IMG/VR virus record: IMGVR_UViG_3300032116_022045 | DNA: 64,000 bases | Source of the DNA: a virus | Lineage: Duplodnaviria > Caudoviricetes | Direction: 5' to 3' (one strand) | Part shown: positions 3,647-55,313 of the stretch, piece by piece | Position numbering within the stretch: the first letter of the stretch is position 1 | Layout: each line of letters begins with the position of its first letter | The notes under the pieces: model-generated | What the model saw: the letters and a program-made list of their open reading frames with translations, nothing else | The model's database searches: none | Told to the model about the DNA's origin: nothing | Translations under genes and position numbers: made by a program

Positions 3647-6633
3647 TATTCAATATCTGCCATTGGTAAAAAAGGTTTATTTTCTCTTTTAATATTTAAT
3701 GGTTTTTCAATATTATGTTTTTTACTTTTTTTATCTTTAGAATCCTTATCGTTAGTTTGTTTTGGTCTTTCATCATCGTCATCATCACCAAAGGTTTCAT
3801 TTAATTGTCTTTGAATATAATGTTTATCAAAACCATGCATATCTATTTTATTTTTTAAGAAATGATATACTTCTTCGATGTCATCTTTTGATGTTGCGAT
3901 ATGGTCTAATGCCCAACCATGACCATCTGATAAGACATTATCAACATTTTCAAAATCCATACCTTTCATTTCTGAAACTGCATTATAGATAGTTTTTAAA
4001 TTTTGCCAAAACATATAATTATTTGACATTTCATCTTTATTTGACATAATTTCTTCTAATTTTTGTTTAAAATTTTCCATATTTTCTTTAATACTTTTTT
4101 TACCCCATGATTTACCTTTACCTTTTGTTTTACATGCACTAGGATATGGTCTACATGCTGGATATTTAGCTCTTTTTTCACCTTCTTCTCTACCACAAGG
4201 TTTACATTTTAATCTACCAGTTTCTTTATTTTTTCTACATGTATTACAATCAACCCAGCCTTGTGAACCTTCACCACCTTTTCTAGAAAACCAACCATGA
4301 AGACCTTGTGATTTCTCTTTTGAGAAGTTAGTTTTTTTAGATTCATCTACTTTAATCTTATTTGTTTTGATATAATCATCAATCCATGCTTGTAATTCAT
4401 GTACATCTGGTGCGTATTCTTTACCCTTTTTTCTTGTAATCGAATCATGAGCTTTTTTAATCATTTCTCGACTCAACTTTTCTCTATCTATCTCTTTAGT
4501 TTTATTAATAGTTTTTTTACCTTCAGTAAATAATCTAGGCATTGTTAAGTATTTAATTATATTTTTATAATAAATATTAACATTACTACGCTTATCTTTA
4601 ATTAATTCACCGTTATCGTTTTTTGGTGTTAGATAACCATTAACATAACCAGTTTCAAAATTAAACTTTTTCATTTCAAATTTAACTAATTTAGATGACA
4701 AAACATCGTTTCTATAAGATTCACTTTTATCTTCAAACTTATCTTTTAAACTATTTATTGTTTCTAGCATATCTAAATTAAAATCAACATCATTATTAGC
4801 AAAATAAATTTCTAAAAGGTTAATCGCTTCAAAATGTTTAGCGATTTGAATTATTTTTTCTATTTCATCTAAGTCTTTAATGTCAACTTGTTTCATAATA
4901 TCATCTATGTTATCTTCATTAAAACCACCAATATGATGTATAAACATAATTGCATCATAGTTTTCATCATCATATCTATTTTCTAAACTTGCTTCAAGAC
5001 CATACAAAAAATCACGTCTAAAATCTTTAGCCATATCTGGATAATCAATGTAATTTAAAGCCATAGAAACTGTATAATAACCATCTGAATTTCCATCACC
5101 TTCAAAAGCAGCTCTTACTAAGCTTTCTTTCTGTTCATCTGTAAATTTATTACTATAAAAATTTTCAAAAGTTTCAGTATCACCATTTTCTAATGATGCT
5201 TCACAGATATTAAAATCAAGGTCGTTACCATAAATTTTATTAAAAAATTCATAAACATCATCATTTTCATTCATAAATTCACCAAGTCTTATTGGATAAT
5301 CTTTAGCGTCCATAAATTGAGAATCCTCAAAATGAAATTGATATTTTTCAGAAGGGTCTTGTTTATTTATTAATATGTATAAAGACCCTCTATTATTATA
5401 ACGGTCAAACATGTTATTATAACCAGTTGCTGCTGTACACCATTTTGTACCTTTACCATAATAACAAGAAGCTTCTTCTGTTTTTGGAACAATAATTGTC
5501 CAGTTAGTTAAATTATATTTATCAACGTCTTTTTTAATTTCTTTTTCTATATCTGTTTTTGATTTTAACTCTTCACTATCTGATTTTGATTCTAAATCAA
5601 AAATAAAATCTAATAAAGTTTTTATATTAAATTTATTAATATCTTTTTTATCAGTAGGTAATAGATTTTTAATCTTACTAGTATTAAAAAATTCTAAATC
5701 GTTTTTTATTTTATATAAATCTTCATCTTTAGCTTTTTTCAATAATTCAACATTATCTTTTCTGAATAACCATCTAGTATATTCACCTAATTTATTTTTA
5801 TCTTTATTATATGTTGGGTCTAAATCAATTATTTTATTAAATTTTTCTTTATCTGATTTTTCATCATCTTTATTAAATAAGTTTTTATAGAATTTATTAT
5901 AAGCTTCTTCAGAACTTATTTCATTTATTATGTTCATATTTTCTTCCATTATTTTTTTAATAAATTTTTTTTGCCTTAATTTAATTGTATCTAATGATTC
6001 TTTAATCTTTTTTCTACCTTGACAATGTGCTTTTTGGCTAAACCCTTTTGGGTTACTACAATCAATACTCTTTTTGTATTTCTCTGACCATTTCTCATTA
6101 ATTTGGTCATCAATATTTTCATCAGTTTTATTTCCCCAATTAGCAGCACCAACTTTACGACATTTTACGAGGGCACCTGAACCGTAGGCACTTGGCCAGA
6201 CAGAATATCTACTTTTTACTTTATAATAACAAGCATCTCTTTTTGTTTTTTTCTTTTTCTTTTTACCCTCTTGAATAATTTCAAATATAGCATATTCACC
6301 ATCTTCAAAATCAGTTTCAATAACTTCAACCATTAAATCACCAGAACCTTTAATTACCCTATGAAATGTGTTTTTAGGTATAAAAATTTCTTCATTAACA
6401 TTAAGTTTTTTTGGCAATTCATTATCAAATTGAATCATCCAATCATTGTTTTCTAAAACAATAACAACTCTATCTTTTTTATCTCTATGCCAAGATAATT
6501 CATTTTCATTAACGTCTTTTGAAAATGAACGTCTAATTATATTATTATTTATAGTTTCCTTATAAGGTTTCATATTATTTTTCATTTTTTTCTTGCCATT
6601 TATATGAGATTGAATCATCTTCGATAGGACCAC
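3646..6633 (-). CDS. Large modular protein: cupin-like N-terminal module, small basic Cys-rich modules, an ASCYYGxGTxWCT domain and a DGHGWALDHIATS module
   Basis: 995-aa ORF; modules are shared with ORFs 7049-8407 and 8440-9870; module borders fall at (I/L/V)xE motifs. Confidence 0.75.
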   Translation of the reverse strand: MVLSKMIQSHINGKKKMKNNMKPYKETINNNIIRRSFSKDVNENELSWHRDKKDRVVIVLENNDWMIQFDNELPKKLNVNEEIFIPKNTFHRVIKGSGDLMVEVIETDFEDGEYAIFEIIQEGKKKKKKTKRDACYYKVKSRYSVWPSAYGSGALVKCRKVGAANWGNKTDENIDDQINEKWSEKYKKSIDCSNPKGFSQKAHCQGRKKIKESLDTIKLRQKKFIKKIMEENMNIINEISSEEAYNKFYKNLFNKDDEKSDKEKFNKIIDLDPTYNKDKNKLGEYTRWLFRKDNVELLKKAKDEDLYKIKNDLEFFNTSKIKNLLPTDKKDINKFNIKTLLDFIFDLESKSDSEELKSKTDIEKEIKKDVDKYNLTNWTIIVPKTEEASCYYGKGTKWCTAATGYNNMFDRYNNRGSLYILINKQDPSEKYQFHFEDSQFMDAKDYPIRLGEFMNENDDVYEFFNKIYGNDLDFNICEASLENGDTETFENFYSNKFTDEQKESLVRAAFEGDGNSDGYYTVSMALNYIDYPDMAKDFRRDFLYGLEASLENRYDDENYDAIMFIHHIGGFNEDNIDDIMKQVDIKDLDEIEKIIQIAKHFEAINLLEIYFANNDVDFNLDMLETINSLKDKFEDKSESYRNDVLSSKLVKFEMKKFNFETGYVNGYLTPKNDNGELIKDKRSNVNIYYKNIIKYLTMPRLFTEGKKTINKTKEIDREKLSREMIKKAHDSITRKKGKEYAPDVHELQAWIDDYIKTNKIKVDESKKTNFSKEKSQGLHGWFSRKGGEGSQGWVDCNTCRKNKETGRLKCKPCGREEGEKRAKYPACRPYPSACKTKGKGKSWGKKSIKENMENFKQKLEEIMSNKDEMSNNYMFWQNLKTIYNAVSEMKGMDFENVDNVLSDGHGWALDHIATSKDDIEEVYHFLKNKIDMHGFDKHYIQRQLNETFGDDDDDERPKQTNDKDSKDKKSKKHNIEKPLNIKRENKPFLPMADIE

Positions 6634-7048: not shown

Positions 7049-8407
7049 TTACCAGTTTAATCTATCATTTAATATTTCATTAAAATTATCATTATCTATG
7101 TTACCATCAAAACCATATCTAGGGTAATTAAAATCAATTTTACCGTATTTTTCTGAGTAACCAGTAATAAATGATGATGTGTCCATACCATATAATAAAA
7201 TTGGTTCAGGACAAGTTATCTTTAATTTTATCTTATCACCATACTCAACATTTGTACCACCAAAATGATTAATTATATGTTTTGTTATTTGGTCGTAAGC
7301 TTCTTTTTCATCAGCTTGACGTTTAGCGTCAGATAACGCACCATCTATTTCACCAATAAATTCATCAAGTATAGCTTCTTCAAGTTCATCATCATCCATT
7401 TCATTTAAATCATAACCATTTTCTTTAAGTTTTTCCTTAATTAAAGACATATTTTTGTCATTAATATCATCTAAATAATATAACTTGATATCACTTCTAC
7501 TATAATCATAATCAGTATAATTATCATCTAAATCTCTTAAAAACATTGCTGGATTAATGTAGTTTCTATCTTCTTCAAAAGCGTCTTCAAAATCACCCCA
7601 ATCATTAACAACAATGTAACAAGAATCGTTAGCAACTTCTAAATCACTAAATTTAAGTGATTTAACTCTATCTTTTAAAAAATTATTATAAAAATTTCTT
7701 AAACCAGCGTTTTGTTTATTATCGATAAATTCAAATAATTCTATTTCATTATCATCAATATCCATAAATTGACTTGTTTCAAAATGAAACTGATATCTAT
7801 CTTCATAATCACTTTTATTTATATTAATAAATAAAGGACCTGTTTTATCATAATAATCAAATCTATTTGTTTTAGATTTATGTCTATCATCAAAAGATTT
7901 TTCACCCCATGTTGTGCACCATTCAGTACCTCTACCATAATAACATGAGGCATATTCTGTTTCTGGTATAATAACACACCATTTTTCATCCTCATATACT
8001 TTTTTAGCACCATCAATAACAGAACACAAATCAACTTGTTTACCTGATTCATAACTAGAATAATCTAATTTGTTTTTTACGATATTACCGAGTTCACCAA
8101 GAGTTTTAAATTTGTCGTAATCTATGTTTTTAAATTCAGATTGTTTAAATTTATCAAATGTTTGTATGTATTCTGTTGCTCTTTCTAAGTCTTCTAGTTT
8201 TAATTGTTTATTCTTATAAATTTTTAATAACCACTTAGCATAAGGACTTAAAAATTTTGGTTTTGAAAATGGGTCAGCATTAATAATTAAGTCATATTCC
8301 TCTTTTGGAATGTCTTTATAAAACTTAATATAAGCGTCATCGACAGTTATTTCTATCAATAAAGACTTAAGTTTTTTTAATTGTGTTTCCGTTATTTTTA
8401 TTTTCAT
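7049..8407 (-). CDS. Hypothetical late protein with an ASCYYGRGTEWCTT domain
   Basis: Paralogous to the central region of 3646-6633; late-type motif upstream at about 8422. Confidence 0.75.
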   Translation of the reverse strand: MKIKITETQLKKLKSLLIEITVDDAYIKFYKDIPKEEYDLIINADPFSKPKFLSPYAKWLLKIYKNKQLKLEDLERATEYIQTFDKFKQSEFKNIDYDKFKTLGELGNIVKNKLDYSSYESGKQVDLCSVIDGAKKVYEDEKWCVIIPETEYASCYYGRGTEWCTTWGEKSFDDRHKSKTNRFDYYDKTGPLFININKSDYEDRYQFHFETSQFMDIDDNEIELFEFIDNKQNAGLRNFYNNFLKDRVKSLKFSDLEVANDSCYIVVNDWGDFEDAFEEDRNYINPAMFLRDLDDNYTDYDYSRSDIKLYYLDDINDKNMSLIKEKLKENGYDLNEMDDDELEEAILDEFIGEIDGALSDAKRQADEKEAYDQITKHIINHFGGTNVEYGDKIKLKITCPEPILLYGMDTSSFITGYSEKYGKIDFNYPRYGFDGNIDNDNFNEILNDRLNW

Positions 8408-8439
8408 TTTTTTATCTAATTAATAAATATTGTTTTGTA

Positions 8440-9870
8440 TCACCAAAAAGTACCGCCCCCACTCAAACCAAGCAATTTAGAATATCTTGGAAGTCGGCAG
8501 CTCCAGTAACCTGGTGTTGTCTTATCATTTTTACTTTTACAATTATGTCTATCAGCAAATCTTTTTCTAGCTTTTGGGTCTCTTAATTTAACAGCTAAAT
8601 TACCACCACCAGATTTAGCACCAAAAGATACTTTTTTAATATTACCTGATTTTGGGTCTTTAACATAAACATAGAATTTTTTAGAACCACCTCTTTTTGG
8701 TTTGTTTAATTGTACCTTTTTACCTTTATATTCAGCTTCCTTTAATGATTCTTTATTAACTTCTTCAAATATAAAATTCATTTTTAATTTCTGGTTATTG
8801 TATTCGACATACATATTATCAAAATCATTTATAATAAAAGAATCGTTTTCATTTAAAGCAAGTAAATTATTTTTATATAATTTTTTTACTTCAGTCATTA
8901 AATTCATGAATTTTTCTGAACCATATCTAAATACTGATTCACCTAATGCAATACCATTATCTAAATGATATTGTAATTCAGGTGATACTTGAACATTTTT
9001 TGTTAATTGCATTGGTTTTGACCATTCACTATAATCATCATTAATATTACTATCTAAAAAATGATATACTTCTTCAACATCATCAGCAGAAGTTGCGATA
9101 TGGTCTAATGCCCAACCATGACCATCTGATAAAATAGAATCAACTTTATCACAGTCCATAGATAATATTTCTTCTACAGCGTCACATATTGTTTTTAAGT
9201 TAGCCCAAAACATATAGTTATTAGTCTCAATTTCATCGTCATGGTTAACGTTTTGATAATCGTTTGATGGATTATATTCATTACTACCTTTTGGTGCGAA
9301 TATGCTTAGCTTTTTGGGGTTAGATAATAAAAAGTTTTCACTAGATTCATCCACAGTTTCTTCATCACCTTTATTATCAACATTTTCATCAGAATCAATA
9401 TTGCTGTTATCATCAATATTATCATTGCCATCATCGCTAGTATTAGACTGATTAGTGTTTTCATCATTTTTTCCAGATTTTTTTACTTTTTTAATTATAT
9501 CTTTTTGGTCATCAGCATCCATTTCACCAGTATGTGTTGCTGACAATAATGAATTAATAGCAAATTTTTCTAATTCAAAATCTGGTTGACCTTGTTCATC
9601 TGTGTATTGTCTAAGTGATTGACCTAATTTACCAGTTAATTGTTGTATAAATTTCTTTGGGTCTTCTTCTTCATCAGCTTCAACACCAGCGTCAAATGGT
9701 TCTTTTTCAAAAGGCATTTCACCAGAATCAGCATCTGTAGGTTCTGTTGTATTATCTACTGCTTGATTGTCCACTGGTTGATTATCCATTGGTTCGTCCA
9801 TTGGTTGTTCCATTGGTTCATCAGCAGGGATATCAGTAGGTTCACCCATTGGCTGTTCCATTGGTGCCAT
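8440..9870 (-). CDS. Acidic/basic modular protein; probably the C-terminal part of a -1 frameshift fusion with 9942-10844
   Basis: The frame stays open upstream of the ATG as far as the A10 run at 9948-9957 (SLIDKLTEEVKYKLKISSPKPAQPAP). Confidence 0.7.
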   Translation of the reverse strand: MAPMEQPMGEPTDIPADEPMEQPMDEPMDNQPVDNQAVDNTTEPTDADSGEMPFEKEPFDAGVEADEEEDPKKFIQQLTGKLGQSLRQYTDEQGQPDFELEKFAINSLLSATHTGEMDADDQKDIIKKVKKSGKNDENTNQSNTSDDGNDNIDDNSNIDSDENVDNKGDEETVDESSENFLLSNPKKLSIFAPKGSNEYNPSNDYQNVNHDDEIETNNYMFWANLKTICDAVEEILSMDCDKVDSILSDGHGWALDHIATSADDVEEVYHFLDSNINDDYSEWSKPMQLTKNVQVSPELQYHLDNGIALGESVFRYGSEKFMNLMTEVKKLYKNNLLALNENDSFIINDFDNMYVEYNNQKLKMNFIFEEVNKESLKEAEYKGKKVQLNKPKRGGSKKFYVYVKDPKSGNIKKVSFGAKSGGGNLAVKLRDPKARKRFADRHNCKSKNDKTTPGYWSCRLPRYSKLLGLSGGGTFW

Positions 9871-11869: not shown

Positions 11870-12554
11870 AATTTATTAATTTTCTATTGTTTTTAATCGT
11901 TTAAAAATATCTCAATAATTTTTTTCATTGCATTTCGGTTGTTTTTATGTAATAAATTATTTTTATACTATTTTTGTCGTAAAATCATTCTTGCGAGCGA
12001 TTCACCAATTACCCCCCAATTGCTTTTGAAAAATTCTTCGCCTTCTGGTGAGTTGTTCCAAAACATAAACCCATCTGTCTTTTCAATATCTTTCATTTTA
12101 TTAACAGAATTTTCAACAGTAATTTCATCAGTTCGAAATTCCAAAAAAACAGCTTTACCAAACTGAATAACTCCGTTATTATCTTTATATGTATATTGAA
12201 CCATACCCATTGGCAACTCCGAAAAAAATAAGTTCTTAAAATAAATCTCTCTTGTTGTCATAATATTTTTTCATTGCATTTTCTTAAGTTCTTCTTTAAT
12301 TCTTCGAATTTCGGTAATTACATCATCACCAAGTTCAATTTTAGACATCAGAATTAAGTCCATAATTTGTGATTCGTAAAGTGCAATTAGCTCTTGTTGT
12401 GATTGTATTACTTTTTCGTTATTCATGATTTTTTATTTTTTTATATTTAAGAATATTAACAAATATACTATTAATAATCGAATTAAACAAAAAAATGTTT
12501 TAGTTGCGTGATATTTTTATCCTAAAATATTGTGGTAATTAAATATACATCAAT

Positions 12555-14487
12555 TAGTTATAAAGATGTATTGCGTATATTCTGTTGTTATAGGTAATAA
12601 AACAAAAATTACGAGTTTTTTATTTCTTCAAACCCATAGTAATGTAAGAACATCAGTGTATGTTCGTCATCATCTAGCATCCTTTCTGTTATTGTTATTA
12701 TTTTACCGTTATGTTCGTTTTTCAAATTACCAATAAACTTCTGCCCTACTTGTAAATAATTAGGTGTAATTTTTGTTTTACTACCTATAACAAATAATTG
12801 GCGTAATGCCTTTAGTTTTTCAATCAAATATTTTCTCATAATATCAACTTTTGTTTTTCAAATTAACTTTTCGTTTGGCACTACGCCAATTATCAACCGT
12901 TATACACAATACTACATTAGTGTTTAAATTATAGTTCCGTGTAAAACTTTAAAATTAATTTTGTGAAATAAAATCTTGACACAATAGATAATCTTGGTTA
13001 TACTCAGATAAGTTATATTTAATATTAATATTATTTTCACAAAATCTTATAAAATTATGAATTATAGGTGTTCCTAATAACTGATTATGTTTTTTTGTGT
13101 AAAAAACAATTATAGGATATAAAACACCCTCAACATCATCGTAAAATTTTTGATTATATTTATTTAACACCAAAAAACAATTTAATAAATTTTTCCCTAA
13201 CACAAGATTATTAGTCAGTTCCAGTTGTTTTTCTGGGGTTAAATTGTCATTAATGAAACCTCTAGTTTTCCACAATTCAATATGTGTGTAATTCATAATT
13301 TTATATTTTAAAGTTAATATTTGTTTTTCAATTAAAGTTTCTACTTAATAAACCGTACTGTGTATAACAAGGTGTATATGTAATTCTTTTTACAAAGATA
13401 CGAATAAATTTTCAGATTTCCAAATAAAAAACTACATATACACCCAACCGTTAGCGGCAATTTAATACCGTATTTTATCATTAACTATACTAACAATCCA
13501 AAAGAACCCAACCAAGCTGAAAGCTGTAAACAGGTAACACATAAACATATTCATTTCGCTTTCAAACATTAAAACAAATCCAACTAATTGAAGGATAAAA
13601 ACTGCCGCTAACATCGCATATACGGCAATAGCGGCTACTGTGCTAATTTTAAACTTTTTCATTATATTTTAGTTTTTGTTGTTAATTAAACTTCTGTGTT
13701 TCAAATCCGCTACTGCGTATATGCCCAACCGTTATGAATAATAAATTTTAAACCCATTCAATCGGTATCAACTTATCACATTTACTATCTTTCACTTCTT
13801 TACAATCATTGTAGTATTCTACGGTAGGAACTACTTTAACAGAACCATCTTCAAATGTGATAATCACTGCTTTGTCCCAATTAGGATGTTTTTCTTTTTT
13901 TAAGATTTTCATATATTTATGTTTAAAATTTACATACTTATAACAAATGATAAACAACATTAAAACGATTGTTTATCATCGGACGTTATATGAAATGTTA
14001 TTTTTGTTCTGAGTTAATTAAAATTAAATACCCAATAAAATAACCCATTTTATCAGAAGATATGACATCATCAATTTTATTTTCCAATTCATTATCTTTC
14101 ATGTAAAATGTTTCAGTGTCCTTGAAATAAAATACAGATAATGATACATTACCATTCATATCCAATAAACATATTTCAAATATTTTACATGAAAGATTTT
14201 CACCCACTTCTTCATTCCCAATTCGTCCATATTTTATTTCATAATCATAGATAATCTTACCTTCTGATATTCTATTATTAATCACACCAGATAAAACACC
14301 ATTAGTATCTTCTGATAATGATTTTGAGTAATTAGTTAATAATTTACCAATATCAAATTTGGTATCCAAGTTTTTAATTTTAAATTTATTCATAATTTAT
14401 ATTTTTAATAGGTAAAACAAAAATAACACATTCATATAACAGATGATAAACAACATTAAAACGATTGTTTATCATCGGACGTTATTC
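12555..14487 (+). mobile_element. Integron-type attC cassette array, part 1 (about 5 cassettes)
   Basis: attC-like hairpins at 12785-12905, 13362-13456, 13606-13737, 13938-13991 and 14434-14487, plus a half site at about 12555-12593; the ends of most cassettes are 10-bp reverse complements. Confidence 0.8.
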
Positions 14488-14508
14488 ATAACTTTCTATT
14501 TTTTATAT

Positions 14509-14940
14509 TTAAGAATATAATAATACACAATATGTTACGTTTAAGTATAATTTAATAATAAGTGGTTCTGTAGTCCCCCAATCCAAAACACCAAAATCAA
14601 CTTTATTGATTGTACCTTTAATTAACCATTCTTCAACTTTATCACCGATAGGAGATAATATAGAAAGATTAACTTCTATTGTTTGGTCATCTAATTTTCT
14701 TAATTCTCTTAGTCCCGTCATCAATGATTGACTCGTTGATGGTACAATTGGGTCGTACATTGAGAAAACCATTTCATCCCATTTATGTCCGCCATTTGTT
14801 ATAATAAAGGTTGGTCTAGTTGTACTTTTTACAACAAATTTTGGAATATTAAATGGTGGTTTAAATTCAACCATAAATCTACTTACAGATTTAGGTTCAA
14901 ATGGCACAAATACTTCTTGATTGGTCTCGTCTTTACTCAT
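14509..14940 (-). CDS. Tail tube (T4 gp19-like) related protein, short orphan copy
   Basis: FEPKSVSRF...WDEMVFSMYDPIVPSTSQ...VEEWLIKG...DFGVLDW, recalled as the gp19-like tube signature. Confidence 0.6.
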   Translation of the reverse strand: MSKDETNQEVFVPFEPKSVSRFMVEFKPPFNIPKFVVKSTTRPTFIITNGGHKWDEMVFSMYDPIVPSTSQSLMTGLRELRKLDDQTIEVNLSILSPIGDKVEEWLIKGTINKVDFGVLDWGTTEPLIIKLYLNVTYCVLLYS

Positions 14941-15200
14941 AACTTTCTATTGTTTTGTAACTATCAAAACATAAATGTACTGTATCTTCATTTATACTTA
15001 ATATCGGGTAACAATGATGTAAAATACCTGATTCACATATTGTTTTGTATTCAATATTTTCTATGTAACTTTCCTTTGATACACCAGACTTACTACGTTT
15101 TTGCCATTTATAAAAGAAGATTACATCTTGTTCTTCGAATAGTCGTATAATAAATTTCATTTCATCATTATATCTTCCTTCAAACCATTTTTCATTAATT

Positions 15201-15782
15201 TTAACTTTCATAAACTTCTATTTTTTCGTTGTTGTATGTTATTGTAATTAGTCGGGTTGGCACATTCCATTCATTATTCATTCGGTATTCAATATCCGAT
15301 GGTAATAAGATTTCACTATCATCAGTATCATTTAATTTTTCTCTACATAAATTCATTCTTTCCTTCAAACTCAACTCTCTTTCCTCAATCTTTAATCCCC
15401 ATTTTTTTGAGAACTCTGAATCGGTTTTGCATTTGTTGATGAACTCTTCTTGTGAATACGGTTTCCATCTACTTTCAATTTCAGGATTCTTCTTAATCCA
15501 ATAATTATCTACTTCATCGTTATGTTTTAGATAGTTCTTATACGCTTCGTCAATAGTCATATCGGCTAACAAAGATTTTATTTTTCTAGCGCACTCAGTT
15601 ACTCTACCATCTACATCAAGTACGGTTGAAGATTCTAACGACCAAAGAAAATCATGTACCGTGGCATATGTTATCTCTCTTTTAATTTGTTTTAACCCAT
15701 CATATAAATGCTCTGCTGGGTCGATATAACTAGATGTACCTAATATAGTAATTACTTCTTTAATTATTTCTTCTTTACTCAT
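15201..15782 (-). CDS. Paralog family member 1 (WGLKIEERELS...RLITITYNNEKIE domain)
   Basis: Shares its C-terminal domain with 15775-16173 and 16437-16808. Confidence 0.75.
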   Translation of the reverse strand: MSKEEIIKEVITILGTSSYIDPAEHLYDGLKQIKREITYATVHDFLWSLESSTVLDVDGRVTECARKIKSLLADMTIDEAYKNYLKHNDEVDNYWIKKNPEIESRWKPYSQEEFINKCKTDSEFSKKWGLKIEERELSLKERMNLCREKLNDTDDSEILLPSDIEYRMNNEWNVPTRLITITYNNEKIEVYES

Positions 15783-16173
15783 AAATTTCTATCGTTTCAT
15801 TATTGTATGTTATTGTGATTAGTCGGGTAGGGGTCGGCTCGTAATAATCATTTTCAAAATCAGGAAGATTATTTTCATTGTATTCCATACCAGTTTCAAA
15901 ATTATTCTTAAACCAAATCTTATATCTTTCTTCCGAACTCAACTCTCTTTCCTCAATCCGCAATCCCCATATTTGAGAGAACTCTGGGTCGGCTTTGCAC
16001 TTTGATAAAAAACCATTTTTATTGTATTGTCTTGCACCTATAGACTTCTCACCAGTTTTCATGTCCATCACTGGAACAGGTTCGAGAAATTTAGGATTGC
16101 TATCAAACATGGTTTGTTGAAGATACTTACGCCAAGACTCATCAATCATCTGATTCATTTTTTCGTTACTCAT
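15775..16173 (-). CDS. Paralog family member 2
   Basis: MSNEKMNQMIDE...WGLRIEERELS...RLITITYNNETIEIYE. Confidence 0.75.
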   Translation of the reverse strand: MSNEKMNQMIDESWRKYLQQTMFDSNPKFLEPVPVMDMKTGEKSIGARQYNKNGFLSKCKADPEFSQIWGLRIEERELSSEERYKIWFKNNFETGMEYNENNLPDFENDYYEPTPTRLITITYNNETIEIYE

Positions 16174-16436
16174 AACTTTCTATTTTTTGATTTTCCCATT
16201 CAGTACCACTATAACCGATTGTTTCCATTTTATCAGTATCTACAAAAACACCCCAACCCCATTCAGATTGATAAAAAACCTCATTATCTTTGAGTTTTTC
16301 GGTCATTAACCAATTTTCATCTAAATCTTCAATTAAACACGTACCATTTTTTGGTACATATTTTATTTCTCGTTTATTAGTTAAAATAAATTTAACTTCC
16401 TCCCCATAACCTTTTAACTTTATTGTATCTGGTAAG

Positions 16437-16808
16437 TTACTCATAACTTTCTATTTTTTCGTTGTTGTACGTTATTGTGATTAGTTTTGCTGGGATGTTA
16501 GATGCATCGAGAACTGATTTTTCTTCTATAATTAACTTATGGTTTCTATCATAAAAATCTCTCTTATTATCACTTTGACTAACCAGAATTTTTGTTCTTT
16601 CTTCTAAACTCAACTCTCGTTCCTCAATCTTTAATCCCCACTTTTCAGAGAACTCAGGGTCTGTTTTAGACCTATAAATGAATGTTCCTTTAGTTTCTTT
16701 TGCCATCCATAAAAGACCTGTACCTTCTAAATGTTTACCCATTTCATATGATTTTTCATAATTCTCATACGCCTCATCAATAATCTGATTCATTTTTTTG
16801 TTATTCAT
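16437..16808 (-). CDS. Paralog family member 3
   Basis: MNNKKMNQIIDE...WGLKIEERELS...KLITITYNNEKIESYE. Confidence 0.75.
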   Translation of the reverse strand: MNNKKMNQIIDEAYENYEKSYEMGKHLEGTGLLWMAKETKGTFIYRSKTDPEFSEKWGLKIEERELSLEERTKILVSQSDNKRDFYDRNHKLIIEEKSVLDASNIPAKLITITYNNEKIESYE

Positions 16809-18282
16809 ATGTAATTTTAGTTACTTGAAATACTTGTTCTAAACCATCGTCTTCACATATATATCCGTTGTACTCGCCTGCATCCCAAACGTTAAATTTA
16901 AAATATAACCCATCTGATTTTCTTTGTACAATGTAATCCCATGAAGGGCCATCTGAATATTCTGAAGTGTTTATCTTGGTTATGTGAGTGTAAGTGTCTC
17001 CATCAATCTCATAACTACTGCCTTGAAAGTAAATACCATCCCACAACTCTAGTTGTTGCTCGGAGTTCATTTCAATTAAAATTCTATCTTTTTTATTCAT
17101 CTTTTTTATTAAATAATTCTTTAAAATTAACTGTTTCTTCTAAAATAATAATATCAATATTCATTTCTTCTTTAGCTTTTTCAATCATGTTGTTTAATAT
17201 TCCTCTAGTCCAAAGGCTACACCCATAACTGTTCTTATGGCATTTATAAACAGAATTAGAATACCCTTTAAAATAATAGAAATCTTCATCGTCTTCAACA
17301 GATACGATTCCACTATTCATTCTCCATACATCTGAAGAAATGTAACCACCATACCAAGTGGCAAAAACTTTATATAAATCTTCGGATATTTTTAATACCA
17401 CCCATTTATCAGGACTATGCATAATTTATTTTTGTAAGGAAATTGAGACTTTGTACTTCAAACGAGAAGAGTTTATATCTGTTTCAATTAACCCAAACAC
17501 GATACTTAAATCTTCTGGATTAATCATTGTTGGGGTAACCATAAATTCTTCTCCTATGTTATCAAGAGAATTTTTAATATTTTCCACTATTGATATTGGT
17601 ATCAATGTTTCAATTTCCATTTCTTCAAAGGTTTCTGGGTTAATGTGTTTTGATTTGTAATTTTTCATATTTGTATAAATTTATTTTTGTTTTGAATATA
17701 TTTCATATGTTTTATTAACAGCATCTTGAACACTTTCCATCCAAGTTTTCAATATTGGCCTAAAATTGAAAATGGACATTTCTGCGTCCCAAATAACTTT
17801 GGGGATTTCGATTTTAATAATTTTTCGGTTTTTCATAATTATTTTATTAGTTTTTGCATAATTCAGTTATTTTATTTTCATTTTCCATAGTATTTAAGTT
17901 TTGTGTTTCAATTTAAAGTAAACGGAATAACCCATCTTTCACAATCTTGTGTCAATCTATTGATGTGTTTATAATTATTCATTTAGTTATAAAGATGTAT
18001 TGCGTATAGCCTGTTGTTATAAAACATTTTTCGATACACCAAGTTCCTTTGATTTTACCAAAAATTCATTTTCATCTTCCAAAGAAATAGTTGAAAATAA
18101 ATGATGTTCCACCAAATATAATGGTGCGTTTGATGTAACTAAATCATTTAATTTAGCTTTATCCCAGAATTTTTCAACTCTTTCTTCTTGTGCTTTTGTT
18201 AATTTTTCCATATAAAACGTTTTATAACAAGGTATATGTGAAATACCTCATAAGGTTTCTACTAATTTTTAAGTTTTGTGTT

Positions 18283-18690
18283 TCAATTTAAAGTAAACGG
18301 AATAACCCATCTTTCACAATCTTGTGGCAATCTATTGATGTGTTTATAATTATTAATATACCCCATCATATTAGCTGAACCAATAGCGTTGGCAGAATGA
18401 ACCATAACCCTTGTTACTGGAGACCCATCCATCCATTTTTCAACTAACCATTTTGTGCAGTCCATACCAGTTTTTTCGGTTATGTTATTGTAATCAATGG
18501 TGTAGTTATTAACCACATTATTATGCCACTCAATCATAGCAGAATCACCTAAATCATGGTCCAAAGATATTAATTCTATATTTTCAAGACCTATTTCAGT
18601 TATTTTTGAAACAAATTCATCGTAGTTTCTAACCACAATCCAATCAGAACCCAATGGAGTTCTAACATCATCTAAATATATTTTTGTCAT
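18283..18690 (-). CDS. Receiver-like domain protein (cyclic-phosphate-processing receiver family)
   Basis: IYLDDVRTP...ISLDHDLG...VMVHSANAIG motif pattern. Confidence 0.65.
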   Translation of the reverse strand: MTKIYLDDVRTPLGSDWIVVRNYDEFVSKITEIGLENIELISLDHDLGDSAMIEWHNNVVNNYTIDYNNITEKTGMDCTKWLVEKWMDGSPVTRVMVHSANAIGSANMMGYINNYKHINRLPQDCERWVIPFTLN

Positions 18691-18983
18691 TTTGTTTTTA
18701 ATGTTTCAATTTCTACTAATAATTCTTTAACATCAAATTTATCCATTTTTTGAAAGTTTTTATATTTTGTTTTAATTGTTGAATTAAAAACAGAACCATT
18801 ACTTTCAGCCAATTCAAAACTATTGTAATCAATAGAATCAACATTATGATATTTGTATTGACCACCATTTTTAAAAATTATTGTTAAATCAAAATTATTT
18901 CTGTCGTACACTGATGCACAAATGTTTGATGAATCATAAATAGCTTTTATAATTCCCTTTTGTTCTTCTTTTTTTAATACCAT
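18687..18983 (-). CDS. KTSC domain protein
   Basis: DSSNICASVYD...LTIIFKNGGQYKYHNV...AESNGSVFN pattern. Confidence 0.7.
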   Translation of the reverse strand: MVLKKEEQKGIIKAIYDSSNICASVYDRNNFDLTIIFKNGGQYKYHNVDSIDYNSFELAESNGSVFNSTIKTKYKNFQKMDKFDVKELLVEIETLKTK

Positions 18984-20908
18984 TTTTATTTATTTATTAC
19001 AAATATACTAATAATATTTTATTTACACAAAAAAATATTTAAATAATAGTTGCGTAATATTTTTATCATAAAACCGTGATATAATTACCTATATATCATT
19101 TAGTTATAAAGATGTATTGCGTATAGCCTGTTGTTATAAACAATAAAAAACCTTAAAGTGGTGGTTCTAAATTATCTTTTATCTTATCATAAGAATCTTT
19201 AATCGCATCTGAAAGTATTTGTTCAATAGGTTTTTTACTATTTATAACAACGGATATATGAAATAAAAAATTAATAGATTCTACAAACTTTCTAATTTCT
19301 TCCTCCGATTTACATTCTCGTTGAACAACACAAAATTCACCTCTTACCACTTTACAAGTTTGGGTTTCTATGTTGTAATAAAGTATTGGTAATCTACAAG
19401 AGTTTCCACATATTTCAGTATCTTCTTCACCTAAAACCCAAACTTGTTTTCCAGAGAATACATCAACTATCTCTTTGAATCCTAAATCTGTTAAATTTTG
19501 TGTTGTTATCATCGTTCTAATTATTAATTTTTTACATTCATATATCCGCAACCGTTATAAAACATAAAATTATAATAACATCAGTAAACAAATTAATGTA
19601 CATACCGTTATTATCATAAGTGCGATTTTTTCAGTCTTATCTATTTTCATAATTTTACGATTTTATAACAAGGTATATGTGAAATACCTCATAAGGTTTC
19701 TACTAATTATTTAAGTTTCGCGGTTAGGTACTTCACATATACCCAACCGTTAGTGGCAATTTTGACGATGTATCTCATCACCGATAGCTTGTAATCTTTT
19801 GACATCTTCTGCATCCCATAAGTAAATTCGGCAGTTAGTTTCTTTTCCATCTTTAATAATTGGTGCAAATCTATCTTTACCCATATCACCGATAGAAAAA
19901 CTGCCACTAACATCGGTTTTGCAAAAAAGCCGTTTTAGTGCTAATTTTAATCTTTTCATTTCTATTGAACTTTTGTTGTTAATTGAACATTTGTTTTTCA
20001 AAATCGGCTTCTTCGCAAAGCCGTAAACGTTAGTGGCAATTTTGCTCACCACGCTTATAAACCATCTCTTTGTTTTCGTCAAAATGTAAGTCATATTCTT
20101 TACAAAAAGACCTAACCATTTTTCTAAATTCGTGATATTCCCAAGTTGTTAAGTCGTGCTTATCAAACAACAACCTCATTTTATACAATAATCCATTAGG
20201 TCTTCTTGTAAATTCATCTTGATAAAAACTGCCACTAACAGCACCTAAATCGCTATTGGCGGTTTCTTCTGTATTCAAATTTTCGTGTTCCATATTATGT
20301 TTATTTAAAATTGATAATTTAGTGTTCCAAATCGCCAACAGCGTTTAGCTGCGGCACGTTATAAGTAATTTTTAGTTACTCCTTATCATATTATCTTCTT
20401 CAAGAAAAAACATTTCCAATGCCGTGTCATATCCTTTACCCTCTTCCACTATCATAATATACTTACCTTCGCCATAAGCTACAGTAGCATTTTTATCAAC
20501 AATGAATTTAATCTTCTTACCTTCATACTTATTATGATAATGTAAGAAAAAACTACTTATAACATCAGATATACCCAATTCGGGGTTATGTGTTTCATTT
20601 GAGTTTTGTTCTTTATCAACCATTTTATTTATTATTTCTTCTTCTCGTTTATTTTACGTTTTTATTTTTTTTATTTTTGGTATGTCGTGAAATATGGTTT
20701 CTTTTCGTATATTATCGGTTATTATCAATGAATTATAATGTAAACTTATATGAACATTATTATATGTAACTGACCTACATTCAAAATCAACTGTTATAGT
20801 TTCATATGACTTGTTAAAAATAGTTTTATCTTCCATATAACAAAAATACTACTATTTATTATAAAAAACAATTGTTAAGATAAAAAAAAATATTGTATAT
20901 TTGTAACT

Positions 20909-48108: not shown

Positions 48109-48932
48109 ACATTGTAAAGATACAAGGAATAATTGACACTACCAAATAAAATGTAAAAAAAACCCATCTTTTTACAGACAGGTTTTTTCGTTCACAACTT
48201 AACCAAAAAACAAAAATTTTACTATTGAAATTCTATTTCAAAATCCTCCACAATTTCTTTTTGTTCATCTGTTAAAGGTTCATCTGAAATAAATTCAATG
48301 TAATACCTTGTGTAAGGGACACCCATTAAAAATTCTTCAACAGATAAATTAAATTCTTGTTTATCCCTTGCCATTATTGTTGTACCAATATGCTCTGAAC
48401 TATTTTTGTCAAAAGCAAATAACTGAACTTTAACCATGATTATTTTTTTTTAAGTGTTTAACGATACCACAAAGATACTACAAAGTTTTGATATATCCAA
48501 ATGTTTTCATTCTATATCACCTTGAATTTTTTGATAAATGTTAGCAAGGTTTAAGATATCCTGTAAACAATCAATTGATAATTCTTCATAAGTGAAAAAA
48601 TCAACAGACCTTTCATTTTCATCACCATTTAAATATAAATAACCATTAACACCATTTAACATAAATTTTTCACCAAGCATGATAGCAGAACCAAGCTCTC
48701 CAATTATAGGTGATGATTCACTTTCAACATCAAATGTTGTAAACATACCAAATTCATCAATAATATTTTTTATTGCTGAAATGATTTCATTTTTTTCTTG
48801 ATTGGTTTCCATTTTAATTATTTTTTTTAAGTGTTTAACGATACCACAAAGATAAAACAAAGTTTTGATTCTACCAAATAAAAATTAAAAAAACCCTAAC
48901 TTTTTTTTGATAGGGTTTTTTTAATTAACTTA

Positions 48933-54593: not shown

Positions 54594-55313
54594 TTAATCA
54601 TTCATGATAACAAATCCATTCTTAAGTGCATTCTTGTTTATTATTGAAGCACCTTTATTTGTTGCTTTTTTGTACTTTAAACCAACAACAACACCACTAC
54701 CATCATTAAATCTAAGGTCATTTTCGTCACCATTAATTACTTTAAATCCTTTGTAGGTTTTTGGTAGTTTATTAAATACATAGGCAACATTAAATCCTTT
54801 TTTAAGTAATTTTTCAGCCAGTTTATCATTTGTTTCATCTCTTGAGAAAGTTAAATGATAATTTTTTGGTAAGACCTTTGTAAATCTTTTATGATTTTTT
54901 GTGTAGTCATAAAACTGAATATTCGGAAATAATTCAAATATTGTTTTATCATCAAAGATTTTAACATTTTCAAAAGGAATATCAGAAGTTCCGTTTAATC
55001 TAACTACAGGAATCATATTATCTTTTTTACCTGAAATTTCCAATAATTCAGAATAAAGTTTAAACATGAAAGCCTTTCTGTTAGTTAAAAATAACTCAGT
55101 TCGGTTAATCCTACCTTGTTGAATTTTGGTAAACATACCTCCCATACCTGAAAAGAATAAACAAGCCTCGGAACAACCTTTTGAAGCGTTTGGGCAAAGA
55201 TTTTTACCTTTGGAATTGTTTTTGTAAGGGGAAAGATACATAATATATGTACGATAACCCTTTTTTTCGCCTTTGATAGTTTTGGCATTGTTTGTTGAAA
55301 GCAAATTACTCAT
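54594..55313 (-). CDS. GP88-family protein (Cys-cluster, radical-SAM-like)
   Basis: CPNASKGCSEACL...RLNGTSDI...QFYDYTK...YHLTFS...GDENDLRF. Confidence 0.75.
   Translation of the reverse strand: MSNLLSTNNAKTIKGEKKGYRTYIMYLSPYKNNSKGKNLCPNASKGCSEACLFFSGMGGMFTKIQQGRINRTELFLTNRKAFMFKLYSELLEISGKKDNMIPVVRLNGTSDIPFENVKIFDDKTIFELFPNIQFYDYTKNHKRFTKVLPKNYHLTFSRDETNDKLAEKLLKKGFNVAYVFNKLPKTYKGFKVINGDENDLRFNDGSGVVVGLKYKKATNKGASIINKNALKNGFVIMND

Follow-up and report, generated by a model that had tools for sequence, protein, structure and literature searches.

The question raised by this stretch of DNA is how integron-type gene cassettes come to lie inside a large phage with no integrase beside them. The stretch, called the window here, is 64,000 nucleotides (nt) of a virus of the Caudoviricetes (IMG/VR record IMGVR_UViG_3300032116_022045). 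The original prediction had described attC-like hairpins in it and had proposed that the phage acquires and shuffles accessory genes through them, using either a host integron integrase or a phage tyrosine recombinase encoded elsewhere. Our data indicate that three blocks of the window, at 12.5-14.5, 18.0-18.3 and 19.1-20.6 kb (arrays A, B and C with 5, 1 and 5 cassettes), are very probably arrays of mobile single-gene cassettes belonging to an integron-like site-specific recombination system. The system is integron-like with an inverted gene orientation.

Nine complete sites are present on the plus strand between 12.5 and 20.6 kb, in a single shared orientation and with half sites besides. 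Each of them reads N6'-TAAC, 2 nt, one arm of a stem of 12-19 base pairs (bp), a loop, the other arm, 5 nt and GTTA-N6. The predicted TAAC...GTT layout of the hairpins was therefore right and its spacing was not, as 2 nt follow TAAC and 5 nt precede GTTA on this strand instead of 5 and 5. The sites are located at 12788-12902, 13365-13453, 13609-13734, 13941-13988, 14437-14484, 19245-19557, 19666-19752, 19908-20032 and 20236-20361. The last of these is imperfect and was read from the sequence by eye, as was 19245-19557, which has a 274-nt loop containing most of an open reading frame (ORF). In a first scan of the window the two arms around the loop had to match perfectly over at least 8 nt, with a short spacer after TAAC and another spacer before GTTA; 7 sites were found in the region and only chance-like matches elsewhere. 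A relaxed scan tolerated a few mismatches; it placed TAAC 2 nt before and GTTA 5 nt after a pair of arms, each at least 12 nt long, around a loop. It would be expected to return 1.8 sites per shuffled window against the 9 co-oriented sites observed, and the predicted number of about nine complete hairpins plus half sites was borne out.

It was observed that the 10-mers on either side of each gene are mutual reverse complements, with cassette A4 as the exception (3/6). All eight pairs listed earlier were found again, at 12587/12782, 12899/13359, 13450/13603, 13985/14431, 18016/18219, 19749/19902, 20029/20230 and 20358/20554. Mononucleotide shuffles gave 5.8 matched 10-mer pairs per 64 kb, scattered randomly, compared with about 9 in two clusters in the window. 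A degenerate pattern made from one site class led to more than 120 IMG/VR stretches among the matches listed, on which the site counts given below rest. A strict scan of about 1 Mb of these stretches found 344 sites, in arrays of up to 13 that are always co-oriented within a locus and in the same size classes as in the window (48, ~87, ~115 and ~125 nt). When the six bases outside GTTA were compared with those outside the next TAAC, 212 adjacent pairs included 83 with 6/6 and 45 with 5/6 complementarity, whereas 6/6 complementarity was seen in 3/348 comparisons within one site and in 1/148 when one site was skipped. This agrees with the earlier claim that the two ends of a cassette match while the two boxes of one hairpin usually do not. 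The pairing of the ends reaches 11 nt past GTTA, and position 7 is almost never Watson-Crick: C stands opposite A on one strand, which is T.G on the other.

The window is not alone in carrying these sites. Sites of this kind form an array in the uncultured 462-kb phage LR756500.1, and searches of GenBank phage DNA returned only marginal matches except for one hairpin common to the window and LR756500.1. Pattern search of whole records was too insensitive for site counts per genome. The system is widespread in large phages whose hosts are probably Bacteroidota.

The fold of the sites is strongly conserved and belongs to one strand. In 23 non-redundant 88-nt sites the stem is 19 bp long without bulges, 99.4% of its cells are paired on the coding strand, and compensatory double changes occur in 14 of the 19 stem pairs. 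The covariation score was 0.588, against 0.176 in shuffles and at most 0.11 when the partners were slid. Two stem positions hold conserved G.T wobbles. Over the first 13 stem positions of all sites, the non-Watson-Crick pairs on the non-coding strand comprise about 500 A.C against about 10 G.T, and these A.C mismatches are G.T on the coding strand; selection has therefore favoured folding of the coding strand. Its fold was the more stable one in 198 of 208 cases when DNA energy parameters were applied, and 181 of 183 unique cassettes have their ORF on the strand that folds. The sites thus have the layout of attC (inverted AAC/GTT cores, outer and inner stems, an unpaired spacer and a variable loop), and by computation one strand folds preferentially, as does the bottom strand of integrons. 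The extrahelical bases of the inner stem, by which integrons choose the strand, are absent, and the asymmetry comes instead from the 5/2-nt spacers and the fixed G.T wobbles.

On the coding strand the order of elements is C, a 5-nt unpaired spacer (usually GGTTG), a stem-loop of 12-19 bp, 2 nt, GTTA-N6, the ORF and N6'-TAA. The ORFs of the window often begin in the loop of the site and run through its second arm and the GTTA box, and two of them (C3 and C4) end at the TAA of the next TAAC box. Of the 66 sites in the 115-128-nt class, 40 have the start codon of the following ORF within their loop. Because only a unit made of a site and its downstream ORF leaves the ORF intact, the exchange point is placed at the 5' TAAC box of the coding strand, which is G|TTA on the plus strand. 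Similar hairpins of the 87-nt class point the same way, as the flank on the ORF side alone was shared in 62 pairs and the other flank alone in none. These arrays carry the footprint of an integron cassette: the first bases of a cassette are complementary to its R'' box, and the exchange point falls at G|TT.

The boundaries of transfer between genomes fall at this point. Cassette C1 (19133-19557) is 93-94% identical, exactly from GTTA to GTTA, with copies in loci L200 and L087, the flanks of which are unrelated; copies in L244 and L236 cover part of the span only. Cassette B1 (18016-18278) is 93-96% identical with copies in L173, L142 and L201, where the homology starts at the G of GTTA 18016 and the flanks are again unrelated. 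In contigs of two lake metagenomes C1 has a different left neighbour, with the break at 19133. The array terminus of L170 shows an uninterrupted GTTAG, and in the related locus L119 this point is occupied by a 792-bp cassette; the flanks of the two are 93-99.6% identical. The ends of this cassette are GTTAGGTGCA and TGCACCTAAC, and its product is a DNA methyltransferase with the DPPY motif, the ORF of which starts in the site loop. The exchange points hold at the GTTA box even where the adjoining hairpins are unrelated. The proposal that cassettes are acquired and shuffled was in this way supported, and the presence or absence of a cassette at GTTAG was seen directly between L119 and L170.

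A dedicated enzyme accompanies the arrays in relatives of the window. The Phage_integrase domain is present in 3 of 5 further large array-bearing genomes, and in all three the gene is a few kb from an array; no such domain was found in LR756500.1. The array-linked tyrosine recombinase is Xer/IntI-like, 268 amino acids (aa) long, and its family is abundant in metagenomes. Its close relatives (54-100% identity) were collected in 41 loci, 33 of which had enough upstream DNA. In about 30 of these 33 the gene is preceded by a co-directional array, which ends mostly 77-860 nt and in a few loci up to ~5.9 kb before it, and sites downstream of the gene or in the opposite orientation were found in none of the 41. 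As a control, 39 loci around distant integrases contained 2 sites in 390 kb. Between the last TAAC of the array and the start codon of the recombinase there is a conserved non-hairpin TAAC-TAT(T)ATATATA motif, which we read as a putative attI equivalent. No gene downstream of the recombinase is conserved.

The enzyme belongs to the Xer family. Its best solved relative is XerA 4a8e (E = 9e-33), and it scores similarly, below cut-off, on the NCBIfam models of XerA, IntI, XerC and XerD; on TIGR02249 it reaches 158 bits (cut-off 265) in two stretches. Against VchIntIA (2a3v) it aligns in two blocks separated by 33 aa where IntI has 81, so that the IntI-specific insertion is missing. The catalytic R, K, H-x-x-R, H and Y are all visible by inspection of the alignments. 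The second of the two enzymes proposed at the outset, a phage tyrosine recombinase outside the window, fits these relatives. The integron footprint holds in the cassette ends and the G|TT exchange; a host IntI as its agent, the first of the two, is improbable and not required by the data.

No recombinase or fragment of one was found within the 64-kb window, in agreement with the original prediction. A weak tblastn match at 54594-55313 was considered as a recombinase and rejected, as the ORF encodes a GP88-family protein. Every array of the window has at its downstream end the same half-site module followed by an attI-like TAAC-TAAWTGATRTATA, and ordinary genes rather than a recombinase lie beyond; in the relatives, the gene and the attI-like site stand together at one array end. 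Because attI-like termini are present and no recombinase gene exists within 64 kb, the arrays of the window are best described as orphan arrays, comparable to clusters of attC sites lacking integron integrases (CALINs). An enzyme from another part of the genome or from a co-infecting phage may act on them in trans; alternatively, they could be relics. Arrays can persist without the enzyme, because G004 and G002/LR756500.1 keep arrays and have only N-terminal fragments of the recombinase.

A plausible mechanism can be outlined from these features. The small Xer/IntI-like tyrosine recombinase would bind the folded coding strand and exchange strands at TAA|C, that is G|TTA on the other strand. 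Cassettes would be excised as circles and inserted preferentially at the non-hairpin attI-like site TAAC-TATTATATATA beside the recombinase gene. In a free circular cassette the hairpin would grow by 15 bp through pairing of the two ends, and the 7th variable position of this added stem would be a fixed G.T wobble; when such a junction was rebuilt in silico, it added -3.8 kcal/mol on average. What was computed directly is the anatomy and covariation of the sites, the asymmetry of the strands, the exact boundaries of the cassettes and the linkage to the recombinase; we infer recombination itself, along with its chemistry, the single-stranded substrate and the circular intermediates.

Several observations weigh against the integron-like interpretation. 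The missing recombinase of the window is one. Two of the 5 distinct phages represented by 6 complete or near-complete records, G004 and G002/LR756500.1, combine arrays with nothing more than the N-terminal recombinase fragments. The end boxes of A4 agree at 3/6 positions only. Recombination of a folded strand by this enzyme is unproven because it has no IntI-specific insertion and the sites have no bulged stem bases. Pairing rich in G.T on the mRNA-sense strand would also be expected of an RNA structure. Lastly, some nearby rearrangements are plain homologous recombination, namely the difference between L162 and L206 and the variant joining 14924 to 15767. In L162 (520-780) a gene directly follows a hairpin and a host-type promoter region, and in L206 (6480-9020) the same gene is separated from it by 2.27 kb of extra genes with the break at the start codon; this rearrangement is mediated by the promoter region and not by the sites. 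The joint of 14924 to 15767 runs through a 20-nt repeat in contigs of two lake metagenomes and is a deletion variant.

Integrons are known as bacterial devices and are defined by an IntI-specific domain that reads the folded attC; in classical integrons the IntI-specific insertion reads extrahelical bases. The phage arrays share with them folded imperfect palindromes with AAC...GTT cores, an unpaired spacer between the outer (R) and inner (L) stems and a variable loop. They also share the complementarity of the far end of a cassette to its own start, exchange at G|TT, co-oriented arrays and, in the relatives, a tyrosine recombinase gene beside a non-hairpin attI-like site at one end. The order along the folding strand of array, attI or attI-like site and sense recombinase, with the exchanged AAC box on the 5' side of the hairpin, is that of the bottom strand of a classical integron. 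In contrast, the enzyme of the phage arrays is Xer-like, with 268 aa and no IntI-specific insertion, and the sites have no extrahelical bases and create asymmetry through their 5/2-nt spacer and fixed G.T wobbles. Their outer stem is long (15 bp), the ORF of a cassette lies on the folding strand downstream of its own site and often starts inside it, and the carrier is a huge, apparently lytic phage. Both the Xer-like character of the enzyme and its lack of the IntI-specific domain set the system apart from a canonical IntI/attC integron. A Xer-type tyrosine recombinase acting on a one-strand hairpin, with the junction resolved by replication, is known from the phage CTX, an integrative mobile element exploiting Xer (IMEX). 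There host XerCD and the chromosomal dif site integrate a whole phage, whereas here a phage-encoded enzyme would move single genes. No description of the recombinase-array system was found in the collection of open-access papers searched in full text.

The alternative that survives best, although we consider it unlikely, is that the sites are regulatory stem-loops like the promoter early stem-loops (PeSLs) of T4-type phages, shuffled by general homologous recombination, the nearby recombinase being unrelated. PeSLs are mobile regulatory cassettes that behave in this way through homologous exchange and produce mini-circles (PMC2839356, PMC4122927). As in the present arrays, their stem-loops flank and shuffle ORFan genes in variable regions of large lytic phages and carry expression signals. 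The start codons held in the loops of 40/66 sites of the 115-128-nt class, a recurring TTTGAAA(A/C)AC motif upstream of starts and the homologous recombination events seen nearby would all be accommodated by this explanation. It does not account for exchange points fixed at the GTTA box in spite of unrelated adjoining hairpins, since PeSL crossovers are variable, nor for reverse-complementary cassette ends, which homologous recombination leaves unexplained and which PeSL cassettes do not have. The one-flank linkage of hairpins (62 to 0) and a recombinase fixed in position and orientation at array ends are likewise left unexplained, PeSLs having no dedicated recombinase. Nor is there a host-type early promoter in every motif. 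Among the 154 sites in the 87-nt class just 11 contain the full Bacteroidota promoter, TTTG-N17-23-TAnnTTTG, as do 2 of the 66 in the 115-128-nt class, and the idea that every 87-nt-class loop contains one was rejected.

It is quite improbable that the sites are primarily RNA elements of a polycistronic mRNA, concerned with processing, stability or translational regulation, and that DNA mobility is secondary. Such elements would be in keeping with wobbles that are without exception G.U on the mRNA-sense strand, with a structure that encloses start codons and the 5' part of coding sequences, and with ORFs on the folding strand in 181/183 cassettes. Yet a role in RNA does not explain why the 5' and 3' flanks of a gene are complementary across 150-1500 nt, or why transfer between genomes is bounded by GTTA and linked to a DNA recombinase. 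A search of the sites against Rfam gave no relevant match and no family at threshold. A dual DNA/RNA role of the hairpins is possible.

A third alternative, which we regard as very improbable, holds that these are canonical integron attC sites captured from the host and serviced by its IntI, an idea put forward for the CALINs of some virulent phages. Qi et al. 2023 reported 17 CALINs (at least 2 sites each; the described examples have 2-3) among 10,705 genomes and assumed a host IntI (PMC9892861). In their work IntI1 recombined 5 of 6 CALIN attC sites from three virulent phages, including Polaribacter phage P12002L (PMC9892861). The AAC...GTT cores, the attC-like layout and the cassette footprint agree with such an origin. 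The phage CALINs resemble the present arrays also in having no nearby integrase, in carrying DNA methyltransferase cassettes and, in one case, in coming from a phage of a Bacteroidota host (Polaribacter). Against this, the gene orientation is inverted, extrahelical bases are absent, the spacers are asymmetric (5 and 2 nt), and the linked enzyme is phage-specific and not IntI. The best match of that enzyme is 37% identical in cultured phages and 52% identical among 185,000 cellular species, and no canonical sites lie beside its closest cellular relatives (46-52% identity), with 3 sites in 958 kb. The present arrays further differ from the phage CALINs in their number, which is in the hundreds, in reaching 13 sites and in having their own phage recombinase family and attI-like site. 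Single-strand transposition by an HUH enzyme of the IS200/IS605 type or another hairpin-guided nuclease, suggested by the hairpin sites, the fixed tetranucleotide at the exchange point and the strand specificity, is hardly credible, as no such gene was seen linked (no search was aimed at HUH families) and the sole consistently linked gene encodes a tyrosine recombinase.

We return to the integron-like cassette arrays and describe those of the window in the order of their coordinates; all the cassettes and termini are on the minus strand, as is every gene within 12.3-20.7 kb. The three termini contain identical 45-nt half-site copies, at 12550-12594, 17979-18023 and 19096-19140, and left half sites occur in truncated form at 18225-18262 and from 20560. 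The downstream terminus of array A (12544-12590) is composed of an attI-like TAAC TAATTGATGTATA (minus strand, 12544-12560) and a 30-nt half-site module ending in GTTA at 12587-12590; its motif resembles the TAAC-TATTATATATA found upstream of every recombinase in the relatives. Cassette A1 (12588-12899) has the ends GTTATAGGTA and TACCTATAAC, a 115-nt site at 12788-12902 and an ORF at 12609-12839 (76 aa, no family) that starts inside the site loop. Cassette A2 (12900-13450), with the ends GTTATACACA and TGTGTATAAC, contains an ORF of 113 aa (12955-13296) and an 89-nt site (13365-13453). The ORF of cassette A3 (13451-13731) encodes 66 aa (13462-13662), a product that by eye looks hydrophobic and possibly membrane-spanning, and its site is 126 nt long (13609-13734). 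The first 22 codons (MKKFKISTVAAIAVYAM...) are encoded inside this site, and the same leader recurs with 90-95% identity before unrelated payloads in L108 (~5388-5453) and L183 (~2846-2908); a site can therefore donate an N-terminal leader. Cassettes A4 (13732-13985; ORF 13748-13912, 54 aa) and A5 (13986-14481; ORF 13998-14393, 131 aa; ends GTTATATGAA and TTCATATAAC) have 48-nt sites at 13941-13988 and 14437-14484.

Array B has its downstream terminus at 17973-18019, with the 45-nt half-site module seen also at 12550 and 19096. Its single cassette B1 (18016-18278) contains an ORF at 18017-18211 (64 aa) and the left half of a site of the 87-nt class, which begins at 18225 and is truncated at ~18262. 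A 98-nt direct repeat with 95% identity, at 17888-17985 and 18263-18360, surrounds it, and through this repeat the 3' end of a cREC_REC-domain gene (18283-18690) is duplicated next to the array B terminus. This duplication suggests that B1 and its terminus were inserted or duplicated at the cREC_REC-domain gene.

Array C begins with a downstream terminus at 19090-19136, formed by an attI-like TAAC TAAATGATATATA (minus strand, 19090-19106) and a half-site module. In cassette C1 (19133-19557) the ORF, at 19153-19512 (119 aa), lies mostly within the 274-nt loop of site 19245-19557. Cassette C2 (19555-19749) has an 87-nt site at 19666-19752 and a possible hydrophobic ORF of 26 codons at ~19570-19651, which was read by eye; translation of 19574-19654 has stop codons, so its frame and coordinates are unconfirmed. 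Cassette C3 (19750-20029; ends GTTAGTGGCA and TGCCACTAAC) carries an ORF of 69 aa (19750-19959), which starts in the loop of its 125-nt site (19908-20032) and stops at the TAA of a TAAC box. The ORF of cassette C4 (20030-20358), with 87 aa at 20030-20293, stops in the same manner, and its imperfect site of 126 nt is at 20236-20361. Cassette C5 (20359-20640; ORF 20372-20623, 83 aa) has the end boxes GTTATAAGTA and TACTTATAAC and only a first half site, from 20560. It is the upstream edge of array C and adjoins a divergent ClpB-like gene. The cassette genes of the window thus number about 11, the eleventh (C2) being a putative ORF only. None of the 10 cassette ORFs tested matched Pfam, and 5 of these, searched also against PHROGs, had no match there.

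The window as a whole is AT-rich (~27% GC) and contains tRNA genes, a ClpB-like ATPase and the GP88-family protein. Several of its proteins match families known only from phages, its relatives are IMG/VR contigs of 100-460 kb, and the carrier is apparently a huge freshwater phage, lytic in appearance. Exact 30-mers taken from the end of the window did not occur in IMG/VR or in JGI metagenome contigs. Relatives selected by the ClpB-like gene (L001-L080) have almost no sites close to that gene. Between arrays A and B (14509-17836) there are small, overlapping and tightly packed minus-strand genes without hairpin sites, including three paralogues (15201-15782, 15775-16173 and 16437-16808) with common repeats of 88 and 67 nt. 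Logan contigs from four lake or 'fungus' metagenomes break at hairpins; most of these joints were not used, having sides shorter than 30 nt and possibly coming from other phages that share the sites. Low cover at 17.5-18.1 and 19.96-20.3 kb in two metagenome runs was left uninterpreted.

Variants of the recombinase add to this picture. The N-terminal DNA-binding part occurs alone, in ORFs of 88-122 aa, at 15098-15433 of G004:C1, where it adjoins an array, at 311327-311542 of G002:C1 and at 48599-48814 of LR756500.1; the last two records appear to be the same phage. Such ORFs could be relics or stand-alone site-binding proteins. The fact that genomes without the catalytic domain keep the N-terminal fragment suggests that the enzyme was lost from some lineages. 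In a 465-kb phage (L208, G001:C1:5000-18000) the recombinase gene at 8328-9733 is split between residues 169 and 237 by ~830 nt, which could be an intron, a homing element or another insertion. Among the cultured Polaribacter phages Freya 1-10, the stretch of small co-directional hypothetical genes just ahead of an integrase varies by 0-4 kb; this integrase shares 36% identity with the array recombinase (L369 = Freya_10, MT732472.1, 1-4962). By eye, the region upstream of this integrase looks broadly like that of the array recombinases, and canonical TAAC...GTTA hairpins were looked for in it and not found. Repeated AAC...GTT hairpins of 43-47 nt lie downstream of recombinases 41-48% identical to the phage enzyme in Fontibacillus (L292, 11756-11802 and 16306-16352) and Paenibacillus (L296, 16071-16113), and judging from these repeats a related system may exist in Bacillota.

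The present study points to a broader possibility for large phages of the Bacteroidota type. We think it rather likely that they run an integron-like platform of their own, distinct from that of bacteria, with a phage-specific Xer-like enzyme that has no IntI domain, folded single-strand sites made asymmetric by 5/2 spacers and G.T wobbles, and cassettes whose recombination site also supplies the 5' end of a gene. On such a platform the recombination site would provide expression signals and sometimes the first 10-20 codons, and recombination would swap whole genes as well as N-terminal leaders placed before payloads. The enzyme and the sites are small and readily testable in E. coli recombination assays. 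If the interpretation is true, cassette recombination on folded DNA is possible without an IntI-specific domain. Because each cassette has its own bar-coded ends, accessory genes could also be located and dated in viromes by means of the arrays. The accessory genes include DNA methyltransferases, enzymes that may help phages to evade host restriction. In the variable regions of such phages, the system would explain concretely how small accessory genes turn over so fast, and a large share of the ORFan turnover would be due to the platform.

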